Source of the DNA: Aulosira sp. ZfuVER01
GTDB taxonomy: Bacteria > Cyanobacteriota > Cyanobacteriia > Cyanobacteriales > Nostocaceae
Direction: 5' to 3'
Assembly (NCBI GenBank): GCA_034530615.2
Contig: JAVRCV020000071.1
Span: 124,335 to 188,334 of the forward strand
DNA: 64,000 bases
A program made the translations under genes and the position numbers. Each line of letters opens with the position of its first letter. Position 1 is the stretch's first letter. Shown here piece by piece: positions 38,150-56,735 of the stretch. The notes beneath the pieces were generated by a model. It made no database searches. It was not told where the DNA came from and saw only the letters and a program-made list of their open reading frames with translations.

Positions 38150-38222
38150 GGGGTTATAGCTCAGTTGGTAGAGCACTTCAATGGCATTGAAGGGGTCAGC
38201 GGTTCGAATCCGCTTAGCTCCA
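38150..38222 (+). tRNA. tRNA-Ala(GGC), CCA not encoded
   Basis: GGGGTTA/TAGCTCC-A acceptor stem, D-arm AGCTCAGTTGGTAGAGC, anticodon arm CTTCA-ATGGCAT-TGAAG, T-loop GGTTCGAATCC. Confidence 0.97.
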
Positions 38223-38254
38223 TTTGTACATTAAATTATTATTTTAGTGTCTTT

Positions 38255-38328
38255 TGTGACTTGAAGAAGAAATTGGACAAGTTGTCCAACTTTACCTTCC
38301 ACATAAAGTTGTCCAACTTTACCTTCCA
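38255..38328. repeat. tRNA-proximal transposon end with putative TnsB sites
   Basis: Terminal site 38261-38280 plus two identical TTGTCCAACTTTACCTTCCA at 38282 and 38309. Confidence 0.88.
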
Positions 38329-38362: not shown

Positions 38363-39721
38363 TCACAGGCTAATATTACGCTGAACTTCCATTAAGGTTT
38401 CTCGAACTCTTTTATATCTTAAATAACCAGGATGATCCAGCTGCTGAGCAACCCGAACCTCAGAAGGATAATATCCTTCCTCACATAGTCTCTGAGCAAC
38501 ACACCGTACTTGCTGACAGGACTTCTCTACTTCATTTTCAAAAGCTGCTTTGCGGTAACAAATATATCTAGCAGATATCTGATTACTTAGTTCCTTAAAA
38601 TTTTTGTATATAGTTCTTCTTTGACATCCTAAACGTCTAGCAACCTCTTCCATTGAAGGCGGAGGAAACTCATCATTAGCCAGTATGGCTTCTAAATCTT
38701 GCTTAACCTTATCAAAATTAAAAGACTGAGTTCTAGCAGTTGTTTGAGACTGAACTGGGGGAAGATTAAATGCTGTGTTGTTAGGTTGCTCATGCTCAAA
38801 ACACAATTCATTCGTCAAAAATTGAATTAATGAAACTTTAACAAAGTAACAAATCTTAAGTAGAGCATGAATAGATGGTAGATTTTGACCTTGGCACCAT
38901 AACCATAGACTATTTTTTGGAACTTGTATTTGACGAGCAAATTGAGCAATATTTCCTTGCGTAAATTGCTCAACACAAGTTTTTAATGATTGTCTAATTC
39001 GCTGTGGTGATAAAGATAGTTCTATTAAAGGGAGACAAGCTATTAAATCTTCCAGAGAATTATTAATCCATACATACCATTCTTGAGCCTGTAATGATAT
39101 AAATTCATCTTTTTGAATTTTCATCTCAATAGAACTACCAAGCCATTTATCACAAATTGAACAATACCCTGGACGTGACCGCCAAGCTAGAGGATAATTT
39201 GCTTTATGACAATGAGGACATTGTTGGTGTAAAGGAAACGAATGCACAGAACATAACTTAACTTCGTTGAGTGACCAAAGTAAAGGTTCATATATAATTG
39301 TCCCAGATTGCAACCAATCATGATAACAATGAGGACACCATGCTCGACTACGACGTAGTAAATTTATAGAAGGTACTAAATTTGATAGTCCTAGCAAAGT
39401 CAAAAAACGCAGATTAGATTGTAAAGTTAATTGTTCAAAAACATTGACTAAATCTTCAGCCATAACTCCTGTACCATTCAGCGCAGCAGTATGACTATAT
39501 ATCTTGTGTAGGTTAGCGCTGCTATATTTCTTATGAGTAAGCGGAGCAATAATATCTTCCATCAAAACACCTGGAAAAAGATGATGGGCAGCAGCAATTC
39601 TAGCTATGTAACTAGTTAAACTTTCAACCCATTGCGTTTTCATACCAACAGGTTTTAAATGATATAAATAACTAGAAGGCAAGGTGTTTAATGAATTCAG
39701 TATCCATGAACCGTAAAGCAT
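38363..39721 (-). CDS. tnsD: TnsD-like target selector (TniQ domain plus C-terminal HTH repeats)
   Basis: ESLTSYIARIA; WCPHC/CSVH/CPHC/CSIC zinc ligands; HTH-like GNIAQFARQIQVPK and PSMEEVARRLGCQRRTIY. Confidence 0.8.
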   Translation of the reverse strand: MLYGSWILNSLNTLPSSYLYHLKPVGMKTQWVESLTSYIARIAAAHHLFPGVLMEDIIAPLTHKKYSSANLHKIYSHTAALNGTGVMAEDLVNVFEQLTLQSNLRFLTLLGLSNLVPSINLLRRSRAWCPHCYHDWLQSGTIIYEPLLWSLNEVKLCSVHSFPLHQQCPHCHKANYPLAWRSRPGYCSICDKWLGSSIEMKIQKDEFISLQAQEWYVWINNSLEDLIACLPLIELSLSPQRIRQSLKTCVEQFTQGNIAQFARQIQVPKNSLWLWCQGQNLPSIHALLKICYFVKVSLIQFLTNELCFEHEQPNNTAFNLPPVQSQTTARTQSFNFDKVKQDLEAILANDEFPPPSMEEVARRLGCQRRTIYKNFKELSNQISARYICYRKAAFENEVEKSCQQVRCVAQRLCEEGYYPSEVRVAQQLDHPGYLRYKRVRETLMEVQRNISL

Positions 39722-39837
39722 ATATATTTTTGTTTCAATTTTGCAAAAAATATATTAATTTTTTCTTTTAAAATAAGACTATTATAATTTTAATTTAAAA
39801 ATATCAATAATATTTAAGAGTCGCTTTTTTTGCTAAT

Positions 39838-40809
39838 TCATATATTCAATAAAAACTTTAAAATAGGTAATTTATTTTTATAGCAAGAAGAACAAAGCCT
39901 ATCAAGTTTTATTTTCCTTGATTTTCTAAAGATATAAAGCGAAATATTGATTAGTTCTTTGCCATCTGAGTCAGATGATAAATTGTCTAGCAAACGAAAA
40001 TTTGAATTGACTCCCAGTATATATTTAAAAGCATTTAAATCAACATCATCGTAAATTAACCAGGTTTTAAGGTAAGGAGCTATAGATATTAATTCACCTA
40101 TATTATAAATAATATAATTTTGATAATCTAAATATTCTTTGGTTAATTCTCTTTGATATTGATTTCTATTTCGAGGAGACTCCCCCAGCCAATTTTTACA
40201 TATTGGACAATAACCTACAAACACATCGCTAAATAATACTGATGATGATTGATTGCAATATGGGCATATTTCTAGTAATCTTCGCTGGTGTATATAACAA
40301 ATATCAATATTTGCAAAAAACCATATTAAAGGTTCATAAATAGTGGTTGCATTTTGCCTCCATTCATTAAAGCAATCAGGACACCATGCTCGGTACTGGC
40401 GACATAATCTTTTTTCATGTATTACTTCAGACCAGGGAATAAATGTTGTATAGTATATATCTTCTCTCAAAGTAAGTTGTGCAAGAGCCTCTAGAATATT
40501 GATTGTCATAAAAGTCATGCCATTTAAACTAGGTCTACTATTTCGATTACCTAATAATTTACTTATTGGCTTATCTTTAAAATCCTTGACAAACTCATCT
40601 CCTTTTAATTGTCTAGCGATTTCTTCCATTATTAATTGCCGTGGGGAGACACAATGATGAAAAGCTAGACGAGTAATATAGCTACTTAAGCTCTCTGTAT
40701 ATGGAGTAGCAACTCCTATAGGTTCTAAGCTATAAAGTTTACTCCTAGCGGGAATTTCTGGTATGGTTAAATCCCAAGAATCATAAAGAGCTAAATTATT
40801 CTTATTCAT
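39838..40809 (-). CDS. tniQ: Short TniQ family protein
   Basis: ESLSSYITRLA; WCPDC/CYIH/CPYC/CPIC; start abuts the tnsC stop. Confidence 0.85.
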   Translation of the reverse strand: MNKNNLALYDSWDLTIPEIPARSKLYSLEPIGVATPYTESLSSYITRLAFHHCVSPRQLIMEEIARQLKGDEFVKDFKDKPISKLLGNRNSRPSLNGMTFMTINILEALAQLTLREDIYYTTFIPWSEVIHEKRLCRQYRAWCPDCFNEWRQNATTIYEPLIWFFANIDICYIHQRRLLEICPYCNQSSSVLFSDVFVGYCPICKNWLGESPRNRNQYQRELTKEYLDYQNYIIYNIGELISIAPYLKTWLIYDDVDLNAFKYILGVNSNFRLLDNLSSDSDGKELINISLYIFRKSRKIKLDRLCSSCYKNKLPILKFLLNI

Positions 40810-41940
40810 TTAATCCTGCCCAACTTTATATCTGATAGGTTTTGGTTTTCCAATTGTTTTATTTGTTTTTTCTACTTGATTATTTTGATTATTAAATTCT
40901 TTATTTAAATTAGTTTCCTCCCTGTTTTGAATTAGTCTTAGTTCACGGCGTAGCTCATCAATTTCCTGTTCGGAATCTTGCAATTTTTGCTCTCCTACTT
41001 TAACAGCTTTGATAATTTTTAGACACTGGCTCACTGGGCGAGCGTGGAGTTGTAAATCTTTTAAAGTAATAGTACGAGCGTGTTCATCTTGCTCTAAAAC
41101 ATATTCAAGGGTTTCGGAAAGCCAGTCTTTCAGCATTCCTACACAGCCTATACTACGTTCATAAAGAAACTCCCAATGCTTTTCTAAATCAGGAGTATTT
41201 GATAAAGGAAGTTGTTGTTCAAAAGTTTTCAGTAAATTTTTAAAGGATTTCTCGTCTATAGAATATTCAGGATGATATCGTTGGAAATGAACTGTTTTAG
41301 TTCTTCTGCATAATTGATCTCCTAAATCGATTAAAGGTAAAAGGTCATAAGTGCCAGTTAGAATTATTTTAGTATTTGCTAGATTAGCTAACGATTTAAG
41401 GACTTCAGGTTGATCTTTTAATTTCTGCCCACTTGATAATAATGCTAGATGATGAGCTTCATCAATATAAAAAGCGTCAGGATTACGATTAATCAATGCT
41501 GATTCTACAGCACGTCTCCATTTAGCTTTAGAGTCTCGCTCGTTAACTTTTTCATCTTCATAAGTAATTTTCTTGTCTATCAGAGGCTCATTGACAGCTT
41601 TGAGAAGACGAATATAAAAGTCTTTCCAGTCAAATTGACTAAACTCTGGAGATTTTGCTTCTACACCAAAAACTGGAATTTTACCTTTATGAATTTCTAA
41701 TTGAGGTAAAGCAGCTTCGTTCAGTTTCTGCACCAAGCGACGAAGTAAGGTAGTTTTGCCAACTCCTGTAGCCCCAACAACGAAAATGAGCGATGTTCCA
41801 GGAGCTTTGTAAATAGCTCTCATTAAAGTTTGAAAAGCTTTAACTAAATGCGGATGCGCCATTGTGTAATTAGTAAAATACTCAGTTCTTTCTTTAACTG
41901 GTTGTTCTAGCAAATGTTTAGGAAATCCAGATTTTTCCAT
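40810..41940 (-). CDS. tnsC: TnsC AAA+ ATPase
   Basis: GATGVGKT, FYIDEAHH, QLCRR; lies between the transposase and tniQ. Confidence 0.88.
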   Translation of the reverse strand: MEKSGFPKHLLEQPVKERTEYFTNYTMAHPHLVKAFQTLMRAIYKAPGTSLIFVVGATGVGKTTLLRRLVQKLNEAALPQLEIHKGKIPVFGVEAKSPEFSQFDWKDFYIRLLKAVNEPLIDKKITYEDEKVNERDSKAKWRRAVESALINRNPDAFYIDEAHHLALLSSGQKLKDQPEVLKSLANLANTKIILTGTYDLLPLIDLGDQLCRRTKTVHFQRYHPEYSIDEKSFKNLLKTFEQQLPLSNTPDLEKHWEFLYERSIGCVGMLKDWLSETLEYVLEQDEHARTITLKDLQLHARPVSQCLKIIKAVKVGEQKLQDSEQEIDELRRELRLIQNREETNLNKEFNNQNNQVEKTNKTIGKPKPIRYKVGQD

Positions 41941-41942
41941 AA

Positions 41943-44702
41943 CTAAAAATCCTCATAGTATTCAAAATTATTAGGATCATCTTCTTCAAGATGTGAAATT
42001 TGTATTGATTCCTCCGCATCGGTCTTAGCATCAATATCAATTGTTACTGTCCTATGAGGATGAGATAAATTTTTACCTTCTATAATGTCAAGTACGATTC
42101 GGTTTTCAAGGGCTTGCAAGCGACTTTTAAGTAATTCGCCTTCTAAAGCTTGGGCAGATTGTAAGTGCTTGATGAGGTCTGTATCTGAAATTTCAACCCG
42201 CTTTGCATGACCGGATTTCCGTTGACGCAAGTCAGCACTAATGACTTTGAGTTCTTTTTCAGTTCGACCTTGCAAGTATTGATAGTGATCAGAAACACAT
42301 TCCCGCCAATACCCTTTTACATAAGCCTGGACAATACCTACATTAAAAGGGTTAATTTTTACATCGACAGACGTTTTTTCAACTTCTGGATCGCGAAATT
42401 CCGTACACCAGTAATAAATATTGTTAATCTTAATGCCCCTGCCTGGTTGAACAACTCTAGTATCTCCATTTTCTGGTGAAGGTAATGTGAGAATTTCTAA
42501 TGTTGCGTCATAGTCAATACGACGCATTTCTCGTCTTCCACCCAGAGCAATACCTATTTCATAAGCTTGGTAAGGGCTTTGACCAAGGGAAGAATGCTCA
42601 CGTTTGTCGTAGATTTCATAAGACCAATGTTCAAGACTTTGATATAATTCTCCAATTGTCCAAACTGCTTGATTTTTAGGATTCACTGCTTTAGTAACTT
42701 GGCGACGTTTTTGCAGAATCTGGGTATTGCCTTGAAGTTCGTGTATCCAGAGAGTGTTAGTTGTTCCAAATACTCGCTCGACAGGATTACCGTAACGAGG
42801 TTCACCGGGAGGTCGATATTTGTGATGACATTTGTAATAAGCCAACAGTTGTTTGAAGTAAATGCTATGAAATTCTCTACCGTTATCAGTGACTATTGTT
42901 TGAGGTAAACGTTTAAAATGTTGGACACAAATGCGAATGACCATCATACAACTTCGATAGCTAGGCTCTTCAAATGATAGGTAAACCGCAAGAATTCGCT
43001 TACAGTAGCCATCAACCATGAAAGTTGCCCAACATCGACCTAATAACTTGATTTCATCAAGAGAAATTGCGGAACTTATATTACAAGTAGTTAAAGAAAT
43101 TAGAGAACTTACTAAATCGACATCCAGGGGAGTATGGTCAATATGAGCGTTTTCCCAAGGCAAATCACCATTACGTGGTATTCCTTCGGTACTATGGAAA
43201 GGTTTTGACTGTTTAGCAACTCGGCTTCCATAACGAGCTTTCACAAGTTGATAATTATTTTTGAGTTTGATTTGAAGGCGGAACGTCTTATCTGAGGGTG
43301 GTTCAAATGGTGGGTTGTGTTTCTTGCAAGCTTCTTTAAAATCTCGATAGACGGCAGTAATGCGTCGGTTTGTAGCAGTAAAATAATTTTCTTCAATAAA
43401 CTCATTCATGAAAGCGACTAGGGCTACATCAAGTTTTTGATGATGTCCCTTATCAAGATGTTGAGGTAAAAGACCCAGATAGCCATTTCCCTTACCGTAG
43501 AGTTTTTCTGCTTCTCGATAGCGATCGCGCCAACGTCGGATAGAACGGTTGACTTTGGTAATAGGTGGCGCATCATCTTCAAAATAGAGCTTGATTTGGT
43601 CATAGCGTTCATTGGCTGTTTGAATATCTTTAGGTCTAGCACGACTGAGTACTGCTTGAATTTCAGCTAGAGAATCCGACTCAACTGAAACTTCTGAAGT
43701 AGTAATGTGTCCCTGCAAGAACAACTCATCAAATTCTTTGTTGAGTAAGCTTGTAGTTTTGCCGTCAGATCGTTTCAGGTACACTCTCTCTTGACCAGCA
43801 TTAGTAATTTCCCAGTATTCACCATCCCAGGAAAGAGATTTACCTACATCAACTTTGAGAGTATTAATGCCAAATTTCCCAGTATTTGCGGTAATAGTTA
43901 ACGAATTTTCTTGATATGCCTGAGCGAGTTCTTTAGTAGAAAAAACTCTAACTTTATCAGGTTCAGCTAGAGTAGCAGTGTCAAAGTTAATGAAAATTTT
44001 TTCTGTGGCAATTAACCAATTAAGATCATCGGGGTTAGTGCTATCGATGGAAATTAGTAATTGACTATAGGTAATTCCTGGCTGTGTTTGGACTTGATCA
44101 AGAATTGACTGAAAAATAAATTTCTCAGAAAATTGCTGCTTTTGCTGAAAATATGGCTCTAGCCAAATCCAGTTTCGTAACCGAATAGGACTAATTTCGG
44201 CAGAGGTTCTCACACGGTAATTGAGTCCGTATTTTCGAGCATATTCCTCCCCTGGAGGACAATGCCAATTTCCATCCTCATCTTGAATGTAACGATTAGG
44301 TTGTTCTTCTGTTAGCTTAAGAAGTTCTTCTTCAGGTTTAAATTCTTCCCAACCTATCCAGTTGTTTTCAATAACAAAAAAGTCAGGTGTATGACGAGTG
44401 CGAACTTTTCTGTCGGTTTTGCTAAAGTAAATTAGTTCAATTGCTGGGGGTTGGTCATAATATTCTAAAACTTCTTTGCCATGTTCTAAATTTTCAATGA
44501 TATGACCTAATTCACCTCGATGGGACTCAAATTGAATTGTTCTACCCATCTTGTCACTACAGTAATTACCACAGACGTTACCATAATTGCCTTGAACTGC
44601 ACGAGAAGGTTCTGATACTCTAATGTGGGCAATCAGTTGGCAAGTGCTATTAGAAAATTTGAGTTGATAGCATAAAGCTTCAAACTCTTCTAGAGACAGC
44701 AT
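41943..44702 (-). CDS. tnsAB: TnsA-TnsB fusion transposase
   Basis: N-terminal TnsA motifs (QFESHRGE, HTPDFFV, EEFKP); C-terminal DDE motifs (HIDHT, VTDNGREF, PVERVFG). Confidence 0.9.
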   Translation of the reverse strand: MLSLEEFEALCYQLKFSNSTCQLIAHIRVSEPSRAVQGNYGNVCGNYCSDKMGRTIQFESHRGELGHIIENLEHGKEVLEYYDQPPAIELIYFSKTDRKVRTRHTPDFFVIENNWIGWEEFKPEEELLKLTEEQPNRYIQDEDGNWHCPPGEEYARKYGLNYRVRTSAEISPIRLRNWIWLEPYFQQKQQFSEKFIFQSILDQVQTQPGITYSQLLISIDSTNPDDLNWLIATEKIFINFDTATLAEPDKVRVFSTKELAQAYQENSLTITANTGKFGINTLKVDVGKSLSWDGEYWEITNAGQERVYLKRSDGKTTSLLNKEFDELFLQGHITTSEVSVESDSLAEIQAVLSRARPKDIQTANERYDQIKLYFEDDAPPITKVNRSIRRWRDRYREAEKLYGKGNGYLGLLPQHLDKGHHQKLDVALVAFMNEFIEENYFTATNRRITAVYRDFKEACKKHNPPFEPPSDKTFRLQIKLKNNYQLVKARYGSRVAKQSKPFHSTEGIPRNGDLPWENAHIDHTPLDVDLVSSLISLTTCNISSAISLDEIKLLGRCWATFMVDGYCKRILAVYLSFEEPSYRSCMMVIRICVQHFKRLPQTIVTDNGREFHSIYFKQLLAYYKCHHKYRPPGEPRYGNPVERVFGTTNTLWIHELQGNTQILQKRRQVTKAVNPKNQAVWTIGELYQSLEHWSYEIYDKREHSSLGQSPYQAYEIGIALGGRREMRRIDYDATLEILTLPSPENGDTRVVQPGRGIKINNIYYWCTEFRDPEVEKTSVDVKINPFNVGIVQAYVKGYWRECVSDHYQYLQGRTEKELKVISADLRQRKSGHAKRVEISDTDLIKHLQSAQALEGELLKSRLQALENRIVLDIIEGKNLSHPHRTVTIDIDAKTDAEESIQISHLEEDDPNNFEYYEDF

Positions 44703-44904: not shown

Positions 44905-45207
44905 CTAAGCTACGTCTACTACTAGTAAACTATTAACAGCGATGATGATTACCTGTGCTGCAAAAGCAGAATCACAAAATTGTCTGTCTTCGCTATTACA
45001 GGGTTGTGCTACCCACTTACCCTCCAGATTTTGGTAAAAAGTACCAAGAAGTTGGGAACCATTCCAGACTCGGTAAAGTTCTCCAAAAACCTCGGATACC
45101 GAGTCGATTTCAATTTCTAGTGCTACTGGAGCAGTAAGTTGGTCAATATACTTCTCAAACTCTGATTGAGCCGAGGCTGAGTCGCTAAACTCATCTTGTA
45201 CAATCAT
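44905..45207 (-). CDS. Small acidic hypothetical protein
   Basis: ATG preceded by GAGG; LYRVW...LLGTFY...W. Confidence 0.65.
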   Translation of the reverse strand: MIVQDEFSDSASAQSEFEKYIDQLTAPVALEIEIDSVSEVFGELYRVWNGSQLLGTFYQNLEGKWVAQPCNSEDRQFCDSAFAAQVIIIAVNSLLVVDVA

Positions 45208-45337: not shown

Positions 45338-45631
45338 TTATTCAGTCACTTCTACCGTGCTAAGAAAATCCTTTAAGGAAATACCCAAAGCCAAGCAAAC
45401 AGCCTCTAATACTTTAATAGAAACACTTTCGGATTCGGCGTACTCTAATTTTTTCAGGTTTTGGTGAGAGCATTCCCCACCCTTAGCAGCAATCTCATCT
45501 ACCAGTTGCTGTCGGGACTTTTTACCACGCAAACGCCTTAAAGCCTCGGCTCTGTCATTATTCCAGGTAACAGAAACAACGTCTGCAACATAAATATACA
45601 TTTTAGTTTTTCTATTCCTCTCATTGCTCAT
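45338..45631 (-). CDS. XRE-family HTH transcriptional regulator
   Basis: LRRLRGKKSRQQL...SHQNLKKLE...VSIKVLEAVCLALGISL. Confidence 0.8.
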   Translation of the reverse strand: MSNERNRKTKMYIYVADVVSVTWNNDRAEALRRLRGKKSRQQLVDEIAAKGGECSHQNLKKLEYAESESVSIKVLEAVCLALGISLKDFLSTVEVTE

Positions 45632-45859: not shown

Positions 45860-46393
45860 TTATGGGGTACTTATATCCTTCATAAGTTGGCGGTAATCAG
45901 CGTATCCTAATTTCTTAGCAAGACTAATCGCATAAAGCTTGGCTCTTTCAATTTTCTTTGCTTCTATTGCTTCTGCCAGTTTCTCAGTCAAGATTAATGT
46001 GGACTCTTGATCGAGCTTTTCTTTCTGAGCAATGGCTAAAAGTTTTTGAGATTCGGCTATTGTTTCTTCAGAAGACCCTCCTAATTGAAAAACAATTCCA
46101 GCACCACTCTCGCTGCCGTAGGGTGTAGTTCTGAGCATTATAAAACCACACAATTGCTTGTTGCACGAAGGGGGTGTGAGAGGATTAGAAAAACCATTAA
46201 AACCATTAAAACCATTAAGTTGTACTCCGTTTTGCTGGATAGAAGTTGTATCTTGAGGTTCGGTGTTGGAGTTATCAGTCAGTGTTGGTGCAGAGTTAGT
46301 TCCAGAGTCAGCGATCGCTTTACCTATTCCCACAAAAAAGCATAAATAAATCACCAACATTGATGCTAGTTTTTCAAAGATATCTTTATTCAT
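45860..46393 (-). CDS. Exported hypothetical protein
   Basis: Hydrophobic N-terminus ending AIA; helical C-terminus. Confidence 0.65.
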   Translation of the reverse strand: MNKDIFEKLASMLVIYLCFFVGIGKAIADSGTNSAPTLTDNSNTEPQDTTSIQQNGVQLNGFNGFNGFSNPLTPPSCNKQLCGFIMLRTTPYGSESGAGIVFQLGGSSEETIAESQKLLAIAQKEKLDQESTLILTEKLAEAIEAKKIERAKLYAISLAKKLGYADYRQLMKDISTP

Positions 46394-46421
46394 AGTTGCA
46401 CCTGTTAAGAAAAGAAATTAG

Positions 46422-46459
46422 GTAAAAGCCGCAACAAAAACTTCCGTTGCGGCTTTTAC
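46422..46459. terminator. Intrinsic terminator-like hairpin
   Basis: GTAAAAGCCGCAAC-N10-GTTGCGGCTTTTAC just after the stop of the 46469 ORF. Confidence 0.7.
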
Positions 46460-46468
46460 TTCAAGGGC

Positions 46469-47464
46469 TTAACGGCTTGCGCGATCGCATAACTGAGTAC
46501 CTCCCGACGAAGCGAAACAGGATGTACGCATTTTCGCTGCCTCTCCATCTGCAATCGGTGATAAAGAAGCAACGGTATAGTAATAAACACCTTTGAGGGT
46601 ATCTCCTGTTCCATCAAGGTCACGCAAGGTCAGCGAATTGCTGGTTGCAACCTGTTGTCCGCTCCAGACTCTAGGGGGTAAATTCCCAACTGAACCGCGA
46701 TACATTTGCCAATAAACTGTGCGGCCAGACAGGTTTTGTGCTTGAACGGTTAAGTCAACAGAGGCTATAGAAACGCTCAACTGACTAATAGGAGATTGGA
46801 AAGTAGTAGCTTGTGGTTGGGTAACTGTACTGTTGCTAGAAGTAAGCTTAGTATATAAAGCGGGAAGTGTTTTAGTAAAACCTACACCATCCACTACTTC
46901 GTTTTGGGTAGGCAAGCCAAAGTGAAGGTGAAGGTGAATCCCTTTGCTTACTGCACACTTAGGATCATTAGGCTTGTCAGCGGCAACAACACCAATCTGT
47001 TCACCTGCACGAAACTGACGATTGTTATAGATATTTCTAGAGTTCCCTTGAACATGGAACAAAGTATATTGCCTGGGCTTAGTATTATTAGGTTGTTGAT
47101 TAGCTTGTTCAAGCATAATTGCGTAGTGGTTAGAAGTCCCTTTTGCAACACAATACCAGACCACTTTTGAATCAACAGGTGCGAGGACTGGAGTACCTGC
47201 TGGAAGCTCAATATCAAATGCTGACTTGCCTAAACCATCGATGTGCAATGTCTGGGACAATATACCAGAAACTCCTCCTTGCCAAGGAAATTTGCCAAGA
47301 GTATTTGCTTGTGCTTGGGCAGCAATAACACTTGTTAGAAGAATCGTAGAAGCGATCCCAGCAGAAGTTACAGTTCCAAAGATGGGATTTTTAAGTAATT
47401 GTTGCATATTAGCTCCAAATGTTTTGTGAATAGAGGTGTTTGCTTTTTGTCTTGGCTCAATCAC
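46469..47464 (-). CDS. Secreted M23-family metallopeptidase-like protein with extra C-terminal domain (start may be ATG 47407)
   Basis: Signal peptide (AQA); AFDIELPAGTPVLAP, YTLFHV, GEQIG, GIHLHLHF. Confidence 0.65.
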   Translation of the reverse strand: MIEPRQKANTSIHKTFGANMQQLLKNPIFGTVTSAGIASTILLTSVIAAQAQANTLGKFPWQGGVSGILSQTLHIDGLGKSAFDIELPAGTPVLAPVDSKVVWYCVAKGTSNHYAIMLEQANQQPNNTKPRQYTLFHVQGNSRNIYNNRQFRAGEQIGVVAADKPNDPKCAVSKGIHLHLHFGLPTQNEVVDGVGFTKTLPALYTKLTSSNSTVTQPQATTFQSPISQLSVSIASVDLTVQAQNLSGRTVYWQMYRGSVGNLPPRVWSGQQVATSNSLTLRDLDGTGDTLKGVYYYTVASLSPIADGEAAKMRTSCFASSGGTQLCDRASR

Positions 47465-47674: not shown

Positions 47675-50600
47675 ATGGCTGATGGGGATTCACTCGGAGA
47701 AGAAACTCAAACAAGAGCATGGGCTTTTGTGTATGCACTGTTTACGACACATGAAAACCCTGAAGCAGATATAACTCAGGGGCAAATAAAGATCGTGCGG
47801 AAGAATTGGAGAGATGATCGTAAAAATGGACATCCCACACTCGTTGTAACTGCTTATAAAAATGACTTACTTAAAGTAATCGGAAAACAGAAACAAATTT
47901 TAGGCAACCTAAAATTTAATGGTGATCACTTTTCCTCTGCATATAACACATGGCTTGCAAAAAGAGAGCCGCTTGATATTCTCACAGATTTGCGAGAGGT
48001 TAATCGTGGATCGAAAGCAAACCTCTACCCATTTGAGCTAAGGCTGTGGAGTACGGTGCTAGAGGATAACAAGCGTGAATTTGACAAGGCATGGGAAGAA
48101 GGAAAACAGCGGAAAAAAGGAGGAGATAGTAGCTTTATATATGATGTTTTTTCCGAAAAATGTCCCTATCAAGGCTTATTTGCTTTTAAAAAAGAGGATG
48201 CGCCTTTTTTCTTTGGGCGTGAAAATTTTATTCAAACTTTAGTAAATGCGGTACAAGCAAAACCGCTAGTGGCAGTTGTTGGTAATTCTGGAATTGGTAA
48301 ATCATCGGTAATTTTTGCTGGGCTTATTCCTACATTAGAGGAACTAGGAACATGGAATATAGCAACTTTCAGACCAACTAATAGTCCTTTTTACGGACTG
48401 GCTAAGGCATTACTTGAATTATTTGAACCAGAGATGCATACGTTAGAACGAGTAATCAAAGCTAAAAAATATGTAGAGAATTTCAAAAAAGAAGATTTAA
48501 CTTTAAAAAATATTTTAGAATTTAAGTTCCAAGAATTTTCTTCTAAAGAGCGGTTTTTAATAGTCATTGATCAATTTGAAGAACTTTACACACTTTCTTT
48601 TGAGGATGAAAGAAATCTTTTTCTAGATCAATTATTAGAAGTAATCGAAATAGAAAGTAAAAAACGAATACCTGATGTTATTTTAGTTATTACTTTGAGA
48701 GCAGATTTTTATGGATATGCTCTATCCCATCCAGCTTTAGGGAAAGCTTTGCAAAAATGGAAGCCAGAAAATCTGCTAAGGATGAATATTGATGAGTTAA
48801 AAGAGGCTATTGAAAAACCTGCGAAGGTAGCAGGATTAAAAATTCAATATGGACTAACGAAAATTATCCTGGATGCTATCAAGAACAATCAGGGTGAATT
48901 ACCTTTACTAGAGTTTACCCTAGAAAAACTATGGGAAAAGCGTAGTAATGGTCAATTAACAATTTCCGCCTATGATGAAATTGGGGGAGTAGAGAAAGCC
49001 TTAGCTAATCATGCTGAAGAAGTTTACAACAAGTTAGACGAAGAAGAGAAGAAGCAAGCCAAGCATATATTTACTCAATTAGTACGTTTTGGAGAAAATA
49101 CAGATAATACCCGTCGTCTGGCTACCCGTGATGAAATTGGGGAAGAAAACTGGAAATTAGTAACTAGATTAGCTAGTTCAGAGCGCGAATTAGAAGCTCG
49201 GTTAGTAATTACAGGTTACGATGAATCTAAACAAAAACCGACTGTAGAGGTAGTTCATGAAGCTTTAATTAGAGGTTGGGAACGTTTGCGGAATTGGATG
49301 GAAGAAGACCGGGAATTTAGAAAATGGCAAGATAGGTTACGCACGGAAAAAGATATCTGGGAAAATAGTGGTCAAGATAGTGGTGCTTTGTTAAGAGGAG
49401 CATTACTGGTAGAAGCTGAAGAATGGTTAAAACAAAAAAGTGAAAATATTACTAACCAAAAAGAAATAGAATTTATTATAGCTAGTCGTCAGTATCAAGA
49501 ACAGGAAGATATTGAACGAATTCAAGAGTTGTTAAATTTATCTCAAAAGGAATTACAGTTAAAACAACAGTTAAATTCCTTGGTTATTGCTGTTAAAGCA
49601 GGTGTCAAGTTACGCAATATTAAAGAGCCTTCACAGGAATTAAAGAATAATGTTATTGAAAGGCTACAACAAGGAAGTTATGAGATTAGCGAAAGGAATC
49701 AACTTGTCAGTCATATAAATGAAGTAGTTGGTGTTAATTTTAGCCCTGATGGACAAATAATTGCTTCTGCCAGTGACGATCACACGATTAAACTTTGGAA
49801 CTTAGATGGTCAGATTTTAAACACCCTAGAAGGACATACTGATCAGGTCTGGGGAGTAAGTTTTAGTCCTAATGGACAAATAATTGCTTCTGCTAGTGCT
49901 GATAAAACCGTAAGATTATGGAACTTAGATGGTCAGCTTTTAAACACCCTAGAAGGACATACTGATCGGGTCTATGGAATAAGTTTTAGTCCTGATGGAC
50001 AAATAATTGCTTCTGGTAGTATTGACAAAACTGTCAAATTATGGAGTGTGGATGGGAAACTCTTAAATATCCTAGAAGGACATAGTGAACAAGTCTGGGG
50101 AGTAAGTTTTAGCCCTGATGGACAAATAATTGCTTCTGCTAGTGATGACAAAACTGTTAGATTATGGAGTGTGGATGGGAAAATTTTAAACACCCTAGAA
50201 GGACATACTGAGCAAGTCTGGAGAGTAAGTTTTAGCCCTGATGGACAAATAATTGCTTCTGCTAGTTTTGACAAAACTGTCAAATTATGGGGTGTGGATG
50301 GGAAACTTTTAAACACTCTAAAAGGACATACTAATAGAGTCTATGGAGTAAGTTTTAGCCCTGATGGACAAATAATTGCTTCTACTAGTGTTGACAAAAC
50401 TATCAGATTATGGAGTGTGGACGGGAAACTCTTGAACACCCTAGAAGGACATAACGAAACAGTCTATGGAGTAAGTTTTAGCCCTGATGGACAAATAATT
50501 GCTTCTGCTAGTGTTGATAAAACTGTTAGATTATGGTGTCTGGATAAGACGCTATTGAGTACCCTAGAAGGACATAATGATCCAGTTTATGAAGCAAGTT

Positions 50601-51550
50601 TTAGTCCTGATGGACAAATAATTGCTTCTGCTAGTTTTGATAAAACCGTCAGATTATGGGGTGTGGATGGGAAACTCTTAAATACCCTAGAAGGACATAG
50701 CAATCCAGTCTATGGAGTAAGTTTTAGTCCTGATGGAACAATAATTGCTTCTGCTAGTTTTGACAAAACTGTCAAATTATGGGGTGTGGATGGGAAACTC
50801 TTAAATACTCTAGAAGGACATACTGATCGGGTCTATGGAGTAAGTTTTAGTCCTAATGGACAAATGATTGCTTCTGCTAGTGTTGATAAAACAGTAAGAT
50901 TATGGCACTCAAATGGAATGCTCTTGAAAACCTTAGAAAGACATACTGATGCGGTCTGGGGAGTGAGTTTTAGCCCCGATGGACAAATGATTGCTTCTGG
51001 TAGTGTTGATAAAACAGTAAGATTATGGAGTGTAGATGGGACCTTATTGAATACCCTAGAAGGACATAGCGATCAAGCTTGGGGAGTAAGTTTTAGTCCT
51101 AATGGGCAAATAATTGCTTCTGCCAGTTTTGATAAAACAGTAAAATTATGGAGTGTAGATGGGACACTATTAAGAACACTAGAAGGACATAGTGATCCAG
51201 TCTATGGAGTAAGTTTTAGTCCCGATGGACAAATAATTGCTTCTGCCAGTTTTGATAAAACAGTAAAATTATGGAGTGTAGATGGGACACTATTAAGAAC
51301 ACTAGAAGGACATAGTGATCCAGTCTATGGAGTAAGTTTTAGTCCTGATGGACAAATAATTGCTTCTGCCAGTTTTGATAAAACAGTAAAATTATGGCGT
51401 ATCGATCCTAAAGATTTAATCTTAGACCCAGATGTTAAATTAAATAACTTACTCAAAAAAGGTTGTAATTGGATTAGGGAATATCTGAAAACTAATCCTA
51501 ATGTTAGCGAAAGAGACAGACATCTCTGTGACAATATTTGCTCTCCTTAA
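47675..51550 (+). CDS. NLR-like protein: uncharacterised N-terminal domain, nSTAND-type NTPase and 14 WD40 repeats
   Basis: CPYQGL..F...FFGRE, GNSGIGKSS, IVIDQFEE, TLRADF, LPLLEF, VHEALIRGW; 14 x 41-aa GH...W repeats. Confidence 0.88.
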   Translation: MADGDSLGEETQTRAWAFVYALFTTHENPEADITQGQIKIVRKNWRDDRKNGHPTLVVTAYKNDLLKVIGKQKQILGNLKFNGDHFSSAYNTWLAKREPLDILTDLREVNRGSKANLYPFELRLWSTVLEDNKREFDKAWEEGKQRKKGGDSSFIYDVFSEKCPYQGLFAFKKEDAPFFFGRENFIQTLVNAVQAKPLVAVVGNSGIGKSSVIFAGLIPTLEELGTWNIATFRPTNSPFYGLAKALLELFEPEMHTLERVIKAKKYVENFKKEDLTLKNILEFKFQEFSSKERFLIVIDQFEELYTLSFEDERNLFLDQLLEVIEIESKKRIPDVILVITLRADFYGYALSHPALGKALQKWKPENLLRMNIDELKEAIEKPAKVAGLKIQYGLTKIILDAIKNNQGELPLLEFTLEKLWEKRSNGQLTISAYDEIGGVEKALANHAEEVYNKLDEEEKKQAKHIFTQLVRFGENTDNTRRLATRDEIGEENWKLVTRLASSERELEARLVITGYDESKQKPTVEVVHEALIRGWERLRNWMEEDREFRKWQDRLRTEKDIWENSGQDSGALLRGALLVEAEEWLKQKSENITNQKEIEFIIASRQYQEQEDIERIQELLNLSQKELQLKQQLNSLVIAVKAGVKLRNIKEPSQELKNNVIERLQQGSYEISERNQLVSHINEVVGVNFSPDGQIIASASDDHTIKLWNLDGQILNTLEGHTDQVWGVSFSPNGQIIASASADKTVRLWNLDGQLLNTLEGHTDRVYGISFSPDGQIIASGSIDKTVKLWSVDGKLLNILEGHSEQVWGVSFSPDGQIIASASDDKTVRLWSVDGKILNTLEGHTEQVWRVSFSPDGQIIASASFDKTVKLWGVDGKLLNTLKGHTNRVYGVSFSPDGQIIASTSVDKTIRLWSVDGKLLNTLEGHNETVYGVSFSPDGQIIASASVDKTVRLWCLDKTLLSTLEGHNDPVYEASFSPDGQIIASASFDKTVRLWGVDGKLLNTLEGHSNPVYGVSFSPDGTIIASASFDKTVKLWGVDGKLLNTLEGHTDRVYGVSFSPNGQMIASASVDKTVRLWHSNGMLLKTLERHTDAVWGVSFSPDGQMIASGSVDKTVRLWSVDGTLLNTLEGHSDQAWGVSFSPNGQIIASASFDKTVKLWSVDGTLLRTLEGHSDPVYGVSFSPDGQIIASASFDKTVKLWSVDGTLLRTLEGHSDPVYGVSFSPDGQIIASASFDKTVKLWRIDPKDLILDPDVKLNNLLKKGCNWIREYLKTNPNVSERDRHLCDNICSP
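49703..51400 (+). repeat. 123-bp coding tandem repeats (WD40), highly similar at DNA level
   Basis: Recurring agttttagtcctgatggacaaataattgcttctg; last units near identical. Confidence 0.9.
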
Positions 51551-51596: not shown

Positions 51597-54500
51597 CTAT
51601 TGATTACTTTGTCCACTCTTGGTTATTCGCTTATAAACCTCCCCAACTAGCCAATCTGACACTACCTTCCGAAAATCACGGTCATTCATGTAACGTGCAA
51701 AAATCGCTTCATTTTGATCAACTCGCTCAACAAAAAGAGACTCTAGCATCTGATTAAAAAGCAAGGCGAATTTATCAGCAGAGTTAACCCGTGCTGCTTG
51801 TTGTAATTCATCAGAATTAGCAGCAGTTTCCACAATCTGATCAAAAAATAATTGATCTGCTTGGTTGAAATCAGTACCAAAACGATTATTGATGATGTCG
51901 ATTAGCTGTGATAGTTTAACAGTATCTCCTCGAAAAATACCTGTGCCAACATCTTTCGGCCCATCGAGTGGACGGGCATTACCTTTGCTTAACTCTATTG
52001 AACCTTCACTAATTTTCTGTAGGCGGTAATACTCTAGCTGGACTTCGCTATCAAAATCATACTGTGCTTCCTGTGGACGACGCGGCAGTTTAGATGATAG
52101 GTGACGCAAAAAAATGTAGAGGCGTTCTAAATCGGAGTCTTGGTAGGGTATAACCTGACTCAAGAAGGCGTAAAGATTACGAAAAGCTGTGAGTTTTTTA
52201 CGCCAAACTTGAGCTTCCTCTGGTTTTTCGTTAAGGAACGCACGAAAGCGGTCAACGGCTGGGTCTAGTGCTGCATTCATTGCTTGATGATCAGCCGGAC
52301 TTTGACGCTGTTTCGGTTTAAAGTAGATTTCGCAAAAGCCTTCAACTTCTTGATGCAGATATATTCCTAAAGCTTCAAGTTCGCTTTGGAGTTGGTAAAG
52401 TTGTTGAGGATCTGCTTCTGCTCCTAATTCAGCCCCCTCATAAAACTGCTGGAATGCTTGGCGAATTTCTTCTCTGTCGTTAATAAAATCTAGGATAAAT
52501 GTATCTTCTTTGAGTGGGTGAATGCGGTTAAGGCGAGAAAGGGTCTGTACTGCTTGAATTCCCCCTAATTTCCTGTCAATATACATGGTGTGTAGCAAGG
52601 GTTGGTCAAAGCCAGTTTGATATTTTTCGGCTACGAGTAAAACCTGAAATTCACTGGTAGCAAATCGTTCTGGCAATTCTTTCTCTCGAATGCCTTTATT
52701 CATCTCCTCTTCAGTGTAAGTTCTGTCTTTAATCTTGTCGTCTGCGACTATGCCGGAAAAGGCAACCAGTGTTTTGATAGGATAACCTTTTTCTTTGATG
52801 TATTTGTCGAAACCTTGTTTGTAGCGCACTGCATCAATGCGAGAGCTAGTTACTACCATTGCTTTAGCTCTACCACCAATTTTATGCCGAGTAAACGTGT
52901 TGAAGTGTTCCACCATTACTTCTGTCTTCTGGGCAATATTATGGGGATGTAGGCGCATGAAACGAGCCAGGGAACGAGCAGCATTTTTGCGTTCTACGTT
53001 GGGGTCGTTTTTACTGGCTTTGATTAAGTTGAAGTAGACTTTATAAGTAGTGTAATTCCGCAAGACATCCATGATAAAGCCTTCTTCTATGGCTTGACGC
53101 ATGGTGTAGCGGTGAAAAGCTTCTCCTTGACGACCAAAGAATTTCAGGGTTTGGTGTTTCGGTGTAGCAGTAAAAGCGAAAAAACTCAGGTTGGACTGAT
53201 GGGAACGCCTGACTAGACTGAGGAAAAGTTCTTCTAGATGTTCTAGTCCTTCTTCCTGAGCGCGGTTTCGTGCTTCTGCTTGCAATGCTTCGCCGCCAAG
53301 TACCCCTTTTAACTCAGTTACAGTTTCACCAGACTGGGAACTGTGCGCTTCATCAATAATTACAGCGCAACGACGGGTAGGTAGAACTCCGCTACTTTGT
53401 TCGTTGCGTTCCTCTGCCAGCTTAACCAACTGGCGACTCACAAAGGGAAATTTCTGTAGGGTGGTGATGATGATGGGAACGGCATTTTCTAAAGCTTGTG
53501 CCAACTGTCGGGAGTTTTCGTCAATTTTCTCAACAACGCCTTGACGATGCTCAAATTGATAAATGGTGTCTTGTAATTGTTGGTCAAGTACGCGGCGATC
53601 GCTAATTACAATTACACTATCAAAAACACGCTGGTTTTGGTCGTTGTATAAGGAAGCAAGGCGATGAGTCAGCCAACCTATGGTGTTACTTTTGCCACTC
53701 CCTGCTGAATGTTCAATTAAATAGTTGTTTCCTACGCCTTCATTCTTTGCAGCATCTACCAGTAACCGCACAGCCTGAAGTTGATGATAGCGAGGAAATA
53801 TCATGGTTTCTTTTTTAAACCTGCGCCCGTCATCGTCTCGTTTATCTTCTGTTTGTAAATGGAGAAACCGAGCCAGAAGGTCAAGTAAACTGTCCCGTTG
53901 CAAAACTTCTTCCCACAGGTACGCAGTGCGGTAATTACGTCCTTCTATGTCTGGTGGATTACCTGCCCCGCCATCATATCCTTTGTTAAAGGGCAGAAAG
54001 TGGGTAGCTTCTCCCGCTAGGCGTGTTGCCATCCAAACATCTTCGGTATCTACAGCGAAATGTACTAAGCTACGGCGTTTAAACTCGAAGATAGTTTCTC
54101 TGGGATCGCGGTCTTGGCGGTATTGCTGTTTGGCATTTTCTACAGTTTGCCCTGTAAGTGGATTCTTCAGTTCTAGGGTGACAATTGGGATACCATTTAA
54201 GCTAAGGGTGATGTCGAGCGATCGCTTTTTTTCCCGTTCACTGTATTCTAGTTGTCGAGTAATACCCACATAGTTGGCAGCATAACGGGTTTCTAATTCC
54301 GAGTTTAGTCCGTGGGCAGCTTTGAAGTAAGCTATACGCAGAGTTCGACCATAGCATTTGAACCCATGACGGAGAGTGTGTAGTGACCCGTAGGTGTCCA
54401 TCCATTTACACAGGTCTGTCAGCACTTGCTCACCTGTTTTTTCTTTGTGCAGTGCTTCTAGTTTCTGCCATTCTTTGGGTTGAGTCTGCTGGATAAATGC

Positions 54501-54629
54501 GATCGCTATATTGGGAAACAAGGCGCGAGTGCGATCAAATTTATCTAAAACTTTGATATAGCCGTGACTGAGAAAGTGATTTTCAATTACATTCTCAAAA
54601 GCTGTCTCGGTGTGTTTGGCTATATTCAT
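51597..54629 (-). CDS. hsdR: Type I restriction enzyme R subunit
   Basis: LELKN nuclease motif, HSAGSGKS, IIDEAHSSQ, FTATP, QTGFD, QTLSRLNR. Confidence 0.93.
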   Translation of the reverse strand: MNIAKHTETAFENVIENHFLSHGYIKVLDKFDRTRALFPNIAIAFIQQTQPKEWQKLEALHKEKTGEQVLTDLCKWMDTYGSLHTLRHGFKCYGRTLRIAYFKAAHGLNSELETRYAANYVGITRQLEYSEREKKRSLDITLSLNGIPIVTLELKNPLTGQTVENAKQQYRQDRDPRETIFEFKRRSLVHFAVDTEDVWMATRLAGEATHFLPFNKGYDGGAGNPPDIEGRNYRTAYLWEEVLQRDSLLDLLARFLHLQTEDKRDDDGRRFKKETMIFPRYHQLQAVRLLVDAAKNEGVGNNYLIEHSAGSGKSNTIGWLTHRLASLYNDQNQRVFDSVIVISDRRVLDQQLQDTIYQFEHRQGVVEKIDENSRQLAQALENAVPIIITTLQKFPFVSRQLVKLAEERNEQSSGVLPTRRCAVIIDEAHSSQSGETVTELKGVLGGEALQAEARNRAQEEGLEHLEELFLSLVRRSHQSNLSFFAFTATPKHQTLKFFGRQGEAFHRYTMRQAIEEGFIMDVLRNYTTYKVYFNLIKASKNDPNVERKNAARSLARFMRLHPHNIAQKTEVMVEHFNTFTRHKIGGRAKAMVVTSSRIDAVRYKQGFDKYIKEKGYPIKTLVAFSGIVADDKIKDRTYTEEEMNKGIREKELPERFATSEFQVLLVAEKYQTGFDQPLLHTMYIDRKLGGIQAVQTLSRLNRIHPLKEDTFILDFINDREEIRQAFQQFYEGAELGAEADPQQLYQLQSELEALGIYLHQEVEGFCEIYFKPKQRQSPADHQAMNAALDPAVDRFRAFLNEKPEEAQVWRKKLTAFRNLYAFLSQVIPYQDSDLERLYIFLRHLSSKLPRRPQEAQYDFDSEVQLEYYRLQKISEGSIELSKGNARPLDGPKDVGTGIFRGDTVKLSQLIDIINNRFGTDFNQADQLFFDQIVETAANSDELQQAARVNSADKFALLFNQMLESLFVERVDQNEAIFARYMNDRDFRKVVSDWLVGEVYKRITKSGQSNQ

Positions 54630-55390
54630 TTTCGCCTCTTTTGAGGTTGGGTTTTGTTTTTATTTTTTGCCTTAGATTTAGCAATATACTCCAGTCTTTT
54701 AATATGTTTTTCTAATGCTTGTATTAATACAAAACAGAAAGGTTCTAATTTACCTTCCTGCTGAAATTGTAGCTTTTTAAGTCTGCTACGTGCATCTTGA
54801 ATACGAAGATCATTTTTTAAACCGAGAGTACCTTGAATTGCAGCTTTACGGAACTTTGTAAGGTCATGATGATCAAGTCCCAACTTCTTGATAGTCGTTT
54901 CTGCTGCTCGATCCCCTTGATTATATTTAATCTCGCCTTTTAAACTGAATAAGAAACGTGTTTCACAAGACCGATCTAATGGAGATACAAATAAATTTTG
55001 TTCTCCTTTGTTGTGATCAGGCCAATTTCCTTTCTGCTCACCGCCATATGGTGTTTTATGTTCAGCATTCGGTCCTGGATAGGAAGCAACCATGTTAGTA
55101 TATGTGACTTCTTCCTCGGCATTACAATAGTCCTGAGCTTTCACATGATCAATATGACAGTCACACTTATGATATGTTGTTCCATTTTCTTCTATTTCTA
55201 TATAGCCGTTGATACGCATACCGCTATAAGCACATAACCAGCCTTGTTCTTCGACTAAGGAATCAGTTACAGCTTTTGTGACATTTTTATTTTGACGCAT
55301 CAAATCGTAGCCAAAGTTAATATCTTGGGCATAAAATACACGCCACTCAGTCAACTCACGAGGTTCATTCTTCTTATGAATCCATCTCAT
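54626..55390 (-). CDS. HNH nuclease, PtuB / TIGR02646-like
   Basis: N-terminal KKNEP..L..W, EQGWLCAY, HIDH...YTNMVAS; overlaps the ATPase stop and the hsdR start. Confidence 0.75.
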   Translation of the reverse strand: MRWIHKKNEPRELTEWRVFYAQDINFGYDLMRQNKNVTKAVTDSLVEEQGWLCAYSGMRINGYIEIEENGTTYHKCDCHIDHVKAQDYCNAEEEVTYTNMVASYPGPNAEHKTPYGGEQKGNWPDHNKGEQNLFVSPLDRSCETRFLFSLKGEIKYNQGDRAAETTIKKLGLDHHDLTKFRKAAIQGTLGLKNDLRIQDARSRLKKLQFQQEGKLEPFCFVLIQALEKHIKRLEYIAKSKAKNKNKTQPQKRRK

Positions 55391-56735
55391 CTTCTAAATC
55401 CACATCATCCGCTAAATCTTCAAGATTATTAATACTGGCTTCAAGACGAATCACCTCATCGTCATTTCCTTGAATCATGGCTTTCAATTGTTCCAGCCTG
55501 TTGCGGGCTAGTTCGAGTTCACCTTCTTCTAGAGCATCTTCTACAAGGTTTATCTGAGCTTGGGTAGTTGCATTACGTGATGCAGTTCCCATCAATTGCT
55601 CAAGTATCCAGTTTGAAGCTAAACCAAATCCTTGAAGTCCCTTTTTAATTACAACAATTCCGTTATCTTCCTTTGAAATTAAGGTTAAGCCTGGTGGCTT
55701 GACTTCACCTACAATTTGCGGTGAGTGTGTGGTAGCAATAAACTGACATTTTGGAAATGTTTTAATTAGTTGCTCTACTATGGTGCGTTGCCAAACTGGG
55801 TGTAAGTGCAAGTCTAATTCATCAATTAGCACAACAGCTTGACCATCCCCCAAAGGATCTTCCGATTCAGGATTAGCTTGTGATAGTCGTTTTGCTAAAT
55901 CTAGCACCAGTGCCAGAATACCTCTTTCACCATCTGACAATTGACGCACATCGAGAGCCACTCCCTCTTTGTCCATGACTAATGTAGTTTCTGGTTCGCG
56001 TACAGCACGAAGATGAGTACATTTGTCCAAAAAGGTAGTGACAGCATACTCTAAAACATTGAGGTGTTGCTGTGCCAATTCTCTTCCCTCTTTTACTAGT
56101 GCCTCTTGCACCAATAACCAGTCAGCAAACTCACGAAGACGTAATTCTCGTCCACTCAGTGCTTCTGCGAAAGCGGCAGCTTGACCACCAACACTAATCT
56201 GTTTGCTGGGTGCAGCCATGCTAGAAAGTGAGCGGCGGGTTGAGAAATAAACTCCAAGAGGTTGAATTTTAGCTGTCTTTACCTGCTTCGATATGCTCTT
56301 CTCATTAGGATTTAAGTCGTAACGTTCTGCTGAGTTATATACCTGTTGCTGTAGCCTTCGTTGTTTAATTCTTTTACGTCTGTCTAAGTAATGAGGTAAT
56401 TGCTCCTCTTCATCTTTTTGTGATGTTTGTTCGCCATATTCTTCACGTGGTTGATGTACTAAGTATTCAAAAGAAATGCCCACTGCATCAAACTGGAGTT
56501 CAGCAGTGAAAGCACCACTATTAATTTTGATATCGCTGGCAGTAAAAGCAATTGGCCTACTTTTAGAAGCAGTGAACTTAGGTAATACCTGCGATAGCAA
56601 AATCCGCAGTGCATCAAGTACAGTGGATTTTCCAACCCCGTTGATTCCTACCAGTAAATTCATACCAGGGTGGAAATCAAAAGTTACCTGTTCAAAGACA
56701 CGAAACTGAGTAAGTGTAAGTTGTCTAATTATCAT
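55374..56735 (-). CDS. ABC/AAA ATPase, PtuA (Septu)-like
   Basis: GINGVGKST, LSDGE, VLIDELDLHLHP, ATTHSP; probable start MIIRQLTL at 56735. Confidence 0.8.
   Translation of the reverse strand: MIIRQLTLTQFRVFEQVTFDFHPGMNLLVGINGVGKSTVLDALRILLSQVLPKFTASKSRPIAFTASDIKINSGAFTAELQFDAVGISFEYLVHQPREEYGEQTSQKDEEEQLPHYLDRRKRIKQRRLQQQVYNSAERYDLNPNEKSISKQVKTAKIQPLGVYFSTRRSLSSMAAPSKQISVGGQAAAFAEALSGRELRLREFADWLLVQEALVKEGRELAQQHLNVLEYAVTTFLDKCTHLRAVREPETTLVMDKEGVALDVRQLSDGERGILALVLDLAKRLSQANPESEDPLGDGQAVVLIDELDLHLHPVWQRTIVEQLIKTFPKCQFIATTHSPQIVGEVKPPGLTLISKEDNGIVVIKKGLQGFGLASNWILEQLMGTASRNATTQAQINLVEDALEEGELELARNRLEQLKAMIQGNDDEVIRLEASINNLEDLADDVDLEDEMDS

Follow-up and report, generated by a model that had tools for sequence, protein, structure and literature searches.

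Introduction

Tn7-like elements that pair a fused TnsAB transposase with insertion at tRNA genes often encode a second TniQ. Hsieh and Peters distinguish six branches of such elements, and the text of their paper (PMC9881144) describes the second TniQs of two branches, type I-B2 and type I-D, as being without C-terminal DNA-binding domains. Two TniQ-domain proteins are the usual complement of tRNA elements according to the accessible text of PMC11837452, and Faure et al. catalogued 998 dual loci, including many short, partnerless TniQs that, in the available wording of that study (PMC10293859), might recruit a partner in trans; the same source treats these proteins as an open question in the field. 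Cas-less dual-TniQ elements at tRNAs have thus been published already, so the layout considered here is not new in kind. The accessible text of a review (PMC11406308) calls the non-Cas systems unstudied and lists Tn5469 as untargeted; Tn5469 is described as cargo-free, with a single TniQ. In I-B and I-D CASTs, as an earlier note on the present DNA rightly stated, the short TniQ partners Cascade and TnsD finds the fixed site; in tests of McCAST and CyCAST, homing distances of 29 +/- 1 bp and 30-33 bp behind the tRNA were obtained.

The unusual part of the element described below is its short TniQ. A search of the openly readable literature text turned up no account of a tailless TniQ that accompanies a TnsD in the absence of Cas. 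Here one intact backbone carries both a TniQ without a tail and a TnsD of the tRNA type; its attachment site is clear, and minimal elements are among its near kin. The question of whether untargeted transposition can be licensed by a TniQ core alone bears on the first co-option of CRISPR guidance and on off-target insertion in engineered CASTs.

A complete Tn7-like element behind tRNA-Ala(GGC)

The window, that is, the whole stretch of 64,000 nt that was analyzed, is the final 64 kb of its source contig; the assembly is 99.99% complete by markers and comprises 83 contigs. As the earlier note had stated, the entire element is visible: it spans 22,608 bp (38255-60862), both ends lie inside the window, the 25-bp inverted ends (38255-38279 and 60838-60862) are perfect, and the same 5 bases at 38250-38254 and 60863-60867 constitute a target duplication. 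The end nearest tRNA-Ala(GGC) is separated from it by 32 bases. The Tn7-like core consists of four minus-strand genes, tnsAB, tnsC, tniQ and tnsD; fused TnsAB, TnsC, TGT/ACA ends and the 5-bp duplication are all present. The features are as follows.

38150..38222, plus strand: tRNA-Ala(GGC), attachment gene, outside the element (ARAGORN, Rfam)
38250..38254, no strand: target-site duplication, 5 bp, tRNA side (sequence repeat)
38255..38328, no strand: tRNA-proximal end, 25-bp terminal inverted repeat and two 23-bp direct repeats (repeat search)
38363..39721, minus strand: tnsD, 452 aa, tRNA-targeting selector (full-length match to PmcTnsD 8v32_J)
39838..40809, minus strand: tniQ, 323 aa, core only (Pfam, alignment, predicted model)
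40810..41940, minus strand: tnsC, 376 aa, AAA+ ATPase with Walker A and B (Pfam, motifs)
41943..44702, minus strand: tnsAB fusion, 919 aa (Pfam Tn7_TnsA-like_N, rve, Mu-transpos_C; motifs)
44905..45207, minus strand: hypothetical protein, 100 aa (homologs compared)
45338..45631, minus strand: XRE/Cro-type HTH regulator, 97 aa (Pfam HTH_26)
45860..47464, minus strand: cargo, 177-aa hypothetical protein and 331-aa M23-like protein (Pfam M23 match below cut-off)
47675..51550, plus strand: cargo, nSTAND1 NTPase with WD40 repeats, 1291 aa (Pfam)
51597..60383, minus strand: cargo, type I restriction-modification hsdM, hsdS, hsdR and PtuA/PtuB pair (Pfam, NCBIfam, PADLOC)
60701..60862, no strand: distal end, repeated sites at 60705, 60736 and 60814 and 25-bp terminal inverted repeat (repeat search, end comparison)
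60863..60930, no strand: second duplication copy (60863-60867), then tip of an older, different Tn7-like end (94% over 66 bp versus L135)

A motif check found the TnsA nuclease motifs and the DDE motifs of TnsAB both present, and the two 23-bp direct repeats at the tRNA-proximal end are likely TnsB sites. A plus-strand ORF of 97 aa (60598-60891) overlaps the distal end; it has no Pfam match and is probably not a gene. The numbers of promoters and terminators did not differ from chance expectation.

The tip at the far flank matches the tRNA-proximal end of an element (L135) located at the same tRNA in a congener. The present element inserted two bases inside the tip of this older Tn7-like end (38248-38254 and 60863-60930), kin of the congener's element; neither a partner end nor tns genes of the older element were found in the assembly. 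The sequence behind tRNA-Ala(GGC) differs among 14 congeners, two of which harbor other dual-TniQ elements there (L060/L135 and L149/L137).

The cargo totals about 16 kb and includes defence genes, among which the PtuA/PtuB (Septu-like) genes (54626-56798) sit between hsdS and hsdR. The 100-aa protein is cyanobacterial and belongs to no known family. Its relatives with 65-69% identity (L060, L149, L192) are encoded either ahead of tnsAB or within islands that follow tRNA-Ala; since its homologs are found also in long-TniQ elements and at one locus without tns matches, it is not specific to the short TniQ. In a rhizosphere metagenome (run X4), short low-depth contigs are 81-99% like tnsC, tnsAB and nearby genes (window 40940-45650); these contigs are too fragmented for the selectors to be visible.

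The earlier note's statement that the element contains no cas gene, CRISPR array or tnsE was borne out. No cas or tnsE family was detected among its ORFs by Pfam (14 ORFs of at least 80 aa), PADLOC (10 of these) or NCBIfam (nine), and no array by repeat search or Rfam; cas6, cas8, cas7, cas5 and the I-D Cascade genes are all absent between the element ends. A tblastn search for remnants with 10 I-B2 and I-D Cas proteins returned only two matches of 27-34 aa (E ~0.04), both inside other genes. The host has canonical I-D (Cas3', Cas1, Cas4), III-A and III-B systems, all on other contigs, and its CRISPR spacers gave zero matches to the element. An I-B2 Cascade was not found in the host by tblastn (no matches with 12 Cas queries, positive controls detected); this search superseded one with MYXAN Cas families, which found no matches and whose controls were equally silent.

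The long selector

TnsD aligns over residues 3-450 with the TnsD of PmcCAST (8v32_J; E 1.4e-108) and scores 57.7 bits on Pfam TniQ (cut-off 27). The "HTH-like extensions" that the earlier note ascribed to it correspond to Pfam HTH matches at 259-293 and 343-383 that are sub-threshold only; what held up is the full-length TnsD match. By its sequence, the long selector would be an ordinary tRNA TnsD, and homing to tRNA-Ala(GGC) is likely; full-length TnsD and the 32-bp spacing agree with the published insertion distance of ~29-33 bp. In the tree the protein clusters at 96/85 with the TnsDs of four further elements at tRNA-Ala. Of these, L049 has an I-B2 system as partner, L141 an I-D system, and L060 and L149 a long TniQ each, so the homing module has been swapped between second pathways.

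Position and duplication are observed; for the mechanism, PmcCAST, McCAST and CyCAST serve as the guide. TnsD would bind the 3' part of tRNA-Ala(GGC) and load TnsC, whereupon TnsAB would insert the element ~32 bp downstream of the tRNA.

The short TniQ ends with its core

Both selector ORFs are as the earlier note gave them, the 323-aa TniQ directly abutting tnsC, and both exceed the Pfam TniQ cut-off (65.7 bits for the short protein). The AT-rich C-terminal region was also confirmed: tniQ has 30.5% GC overall, and 24-29% in 120-base blocks over codons 161-320. The protein retains each of the eight zinc-finger ligands, as well as the remaining invariant columns.

In the predicted model (pLDDT 81, with a weak stretch at 267-275), the last residue, 323, corresponds to PmcTniQ residue 311 of 329 via an alignment of 303 residues (Z 29.2, rmsd 5.0) and to PmcTnsD residue 316 of 462 (Z 29.1, rmsd 3.5, 287 aligned). 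The model of a TniQ from a minimal element (L195; see below) ends at PmcTniQ 310 and PmcTnsD 315 (Z 26.5, rmsd 3.2, 273 aligned). The 10 I-B2-type TniQs that were compared all extend 15-19 residues beyond this point, and long TniQs 117-217 residues; the short TniQ has none. PmcTniQ 309-329 is the effector-recognition region according to the available text of a preprint (10.64898/2026.05.29.728539), and this region is missing. Stopping at Pmc 311, the short TniQ is thus without the I-B2 Cascade-binding tail as well as the TnsD DNA-binding tail, and is modelled as a bare zinc-finger, TnsC-loading core that stops at the end of the helical domain.

The sequence of the C-terminal domain fits no known group: it scores 13 bits on the I-B2 profile (versus 134 for the control), 17 on the long-TniQ profile and 11 on the TnsD profile (controls, 78-134), 3.7 bits on a minimal-family profile, and gives zero signal on the I-D profile. 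Identity is 33-36% to minimal-family TniQs and 38% to an I-B2 TniQ. From the 33-36% identity and the 3.7 bits, the protein is not a close orthologue of the minimal TniQs. Pairwise global alignments leave 0-13 residues of the minimal TniQs past its end; the shared end point is based on the multiple alignment and on two predicted models from overlapping alignments.

Protein searches with the short TniQ (22 matches among 1252 candidates; best 150 of 3590 in the representative search) yielded a sole full-length relative among the matches listed, P0002, of 324 aa and 45% identity. P0002 lies 0.78 changes per site away, stops at the same alignment column and keeps all zinc ligands, so the short form did not arise by a recent truncation. 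Its contig is at most 1,899 bp long, and the neighbourhood could hold cas genes. The C-terminal region alone retrieved only itself among 52 candidates, and pattern scans with the short TniQ gave zero matches. In genome searches, at least 38 of 401, 153 of 389 and 33 of 401 genomes were matched among the matches listed, the best non-self score there being 237-250 bits against 647-747 for self. In contigs of three public runs, a possible source of this DNA, tniQ shows zero differing letters relative to the window. Another version of the short TniQ in the database, P0171, departs from it close to the C-terminus (window 39838-39850) and runs to 331 aa, as an allele or through an assembly error.

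The tniQ-tnsD spacer bears no convincing likeness to 14 tnsD upstream regions (the AT-rich L051 reached 64, shuffled sequences up to 62). A predicted TniQ-TnsD complex scored 0.01, which is no answer and counts neither for nor against pairing.

Minimal elements provide the closest backbone

A search with TnsC uncovered nearer backbones at 11 plus 18 loci, mostly elements of ~4.95 kb. In a tree of 31 TnsCs, the window's protein falls in a clade of eight (100/99) with five ~4.95-kb elements and two loci, L179 and L220, of which not both ends were located. In all seven partners tnsC is followed by a single short TniQ, and the stretch in view gives no match to tnsD or cas; the next branch consists of long-TniQ elements. 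Identity to the single-short-TniQ elements is 58-68% for TnsAB and 59-68% for TnsC, as opposed to 29-50% for TnsC of I-B2 and I-D loci, and the element ends are 85-89% identical over 72-77 bp to minimal-element ends. By sequence, then, the closest backbone is one that the earlier note overlooked: minimal elements whose tailless TniQ, placed right after tnsC and sharing the structural end point, would have no partner in cis. The window element differs from them in adding tnsD and cargo, and in being single-copy at a tRNA.

Members of this minimal family (L194-L198, L205-L218, L221-L225) are ~4.95 kb long, cargo-free and multi-copy, and consist of tnsAB, tnsC and one TniQ of ~315-330 aa. Over 21 loci, the flanks include 11 distinct sequences on the tnsAB side and 16 on the tniQ side (two of the 16 being homologous sites), with 5-bp duplications in seven cases. 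None of the 21 lies at tRNA homing distance; on its tnsAB side, one copy has a tRNA-Leu 112 bp away. Six distinct tniQ-side flanks occur within one genome, and in one Nostoc strain copies 98.5-98.7% identical are carried by three plasmids, one copy splitting a plasmid dnaB gene. A tailless TniQ without a partner in cis thus goes with dispersed mobility; it may also be the cause of the dispersal. About ten plasmid matches of ~300-450 bp contain both minimal-family ends only and are probably miniature derivatives.

An F. diplosiphon element of 4,904 bp, by its size probably Tn5469, encodes a TniQ of 272 aa and has ends that differ from those of the window element. Eleven rows of Table S1 of PMC9881144, in the portion available, list the ~4.95-kb family in one Tolypothrix genome.

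Kinship of the short TniQ

In a first TniQ tree (67 cores, 248 columns; bootstrap not fully settled), which did not include the minimal TniQs, the short TniQ and P0002 (100/99) stand beside the I-B2 TniQs (99/84), adjoining the I-B2 clade proper (100/98) from outside; the I-D clade (100/100) excludes the short TniQ. One locus, L054, had been labelled "Cas" in this tree by size only; two of its ORFs were scanned and are not Cas, and it was left out of later trees. AU tests on 24 of the 67 rows rejected grouping with the I-D TniQs (p 0.027) and with the two nearest long TniQs (p 0.025), as well as an origin by in-place duplication of the element's own tnsD (p 4e-6).

When minimal TniQs were added (LG+G4), the short-TniQ lineage, the minimal family and the I-B2 TniQs formed one clade, with support of 97/96 on 19 rows and 92/94 when two long-branch rows were kept. 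Within the clade, the three lineages amount to a trichotomy: the short TniQ joins the I-B2 TniQs at 69/50, with p values of 0.25 for its joining the minimal TniQs, which is not rejected, and 0.32 for the other alternative.

The layout was also sought in a survey of 58 hand-picked loci in which tnsC is followed by a TniQ-family gene; counts from this sample are not frequencies, and most ends are unmapped. Eighteen were long-TniQ plus TnsD tandems without a cas match in the fetched stretch and two were short tandems, one with an I-D-clade TniQ and nearby cas genes, the other a broken long gene; a tailless TniQ with TnsD and no cas occurred in none of the 58. The long tandems share with the window element the traits of the non-Cas second-TniQ elements in the text of PMC9881144, namely fused TnsAB, TnsC, tRNA TnsD, cargo and no Cas, but their first TniQs measure 437-768 aa (18 fetched), as against 323 aa here, and the short TniQ falls outside them. 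By that text, proteins without C-terminal DNA-binding domains occur only in the I-B2 and I-D branches. Three candidates for the same layout were discarded: the TniQs of L139 and L140 belong to the I-D clade, L139 having cas genes nearby, and in L146 a stop interrupts a long TniQ.

Compared with type I-B2 CASTs (PmcCAST, Tn7744), which furnish the best PDB matches of both selectors, the element shares fold, wider TniQ clade and tRNA homing, but has neither cas6/8/7/5 genes nor an array, its TniQ is ~18 C-terminal residues shorter, and the helical-domain sequence differs. With type I-D CASTs (McCAST, CyCAST) it has in common the TnsAB fusion and tRNA homing at a similar distance (29-33 bp), and several fetched examples share the tRNA-Ala(GGC) site; no I-D Cascade lies inside its ends, however, and its TniQ is outside their clade.

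Proposed origin and second pathway

Judged by its layout, the element would behave as a dual-pathway tRNA element, and by its sequence it belongs to neither CAST type. The account that we favor, at roughly an even chance, is that an IS-like backbone of tnsAB, tnsC and a core tniQ later gained a tRNA-Ala tnsD and defence cargo, and that it now combines tRNA homing with a second route of low specificity. The short TniQ would most likely load TnsC with little sequence specificity, as the lone TniQ of the minimal elements appears to do, and this route would serve dispersal to plasmids and other sites; by competing for TnsC, the protein may also damp homing. This account supposes that the minimal elements need their TniQ and no host factor. 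An assembly-wide search found a single copy of the element, at the tRNA, so the second pathway is not seen at work.

A more tentative possibility is that the element represents a living pre-CAST stage. The tailless TniQ, of the lineage from which the I-B2 TniQ would have arisen by gaining a short C-terminal helix and Cascade, would drive a real second pathway beside TnsD homing, one that is partner-free or host-assisted and reaches plasmids. If so, untargeted and RNA-guided TniQs would differ mainly by a reshaped helical domain and ~18 residues.

It is doubtful that the element is instead a degenerate CAST, an I-B2 relative that deleted a Cascade-and-cargo block between tniQ and tnsD and kept TniQ as a relic or homing damper. 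A cas block does occupy that position in I-B2 loci (L045/L046, L051, L055), and a single deletion there would give the layout of the window; the position of TniQ in trees without minimal TniQs, the sister relationship (97/91) of TnsD to that of the I-B2 element at tRNA-Ala (L049) and the AT-rich, divergent C-terminal region of TniQ are in keeping with such an event. Yet no cas or array remnant persists in the element, the C-terminal domain is barely recognized by the I-B2 profile, distant P0002 lacks the tail from the same point onward, and the core branch of the short TniQ is of unremarkable length (0.32, against a median of 0.46). Single-TniQ elements are the source of TnsC and of the ends, and tniQ-tnsD gaps of 106-120 bp are found also in cas-less long-TniQ tandems. 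The first option of the earlier note, a CAST relative that lost or never gained Cascade, fits as to kinship, the clade holding I-B2 TniQs; the evidence favors "never gained" over "lost".

We regard it as quite improbable that the core TniQ is an adaptor giving a specific second target, with a partner encoded in the cargo or acting in trans; in the latter case the host could supply some DNA-binding protein or complex, perhaps its canonical I-D Cascade. The proposal of Faure et al., the precedents of TnsF (Tn6022) and TnsP (PAST), a C-terminal domain resembling no known group and a canonical I-D system in the host speak for it. A host Cascade is nevertheless a weak candidate, as the host yielded no I-B2 type, TniQ is not of the I-D clade, lacks C-terminal signal on the I-D profile and has no PmcCAST-type tail. 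For other partners, no cargo gene tracks with the short TniQ (one orthologue, P0002, being available for comparison), and the minimal relatives leave no room for a partner in cis. The earlier note had offered a host Cascade or a cargo protein as an undescribed second pathway; both the trans-partner idea and the layout are already in print.

A purely regulatory TniQ that tunes homing, or an obligate TniQ-TnsD pair, the earlier note's second option and itself unlikely, is very improbable: although tniQ and tnsD are adjacent in one orientation, and a regulatory effect is plausible given that TniQ lowers TnsD homing in McCAST and, by ~13-fold (0.008% to 0.0006%), in CyCAST, TnsABC and TnsD suffice in these tested relatives, TnsD is full length, single-TnsD elements exist at tRNAs (L182, L183, L186), other TnsDs in its clade have I-B2, I-D or long TniQs as partners, and in-place duplication was rejected.

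Other loci in the survey

At tRNA-Leu, three loci (L139, L159, L160) have a short I-D-clade TniQ in tandem with TnsD; within ~35 kb follow two cas1 genes, two arrays, a type III-B module and then an I-D Cascade, the ends being unmapped. At L177, located at tRNA-Ala, the first TniQ is 768 aa long and tnsAB/tnsC are doubled and broken. Type I-D CAST-like loci (L141-L145, L150, L151, L153) are at tRNA-Ala(GGC) in six of eight cases.
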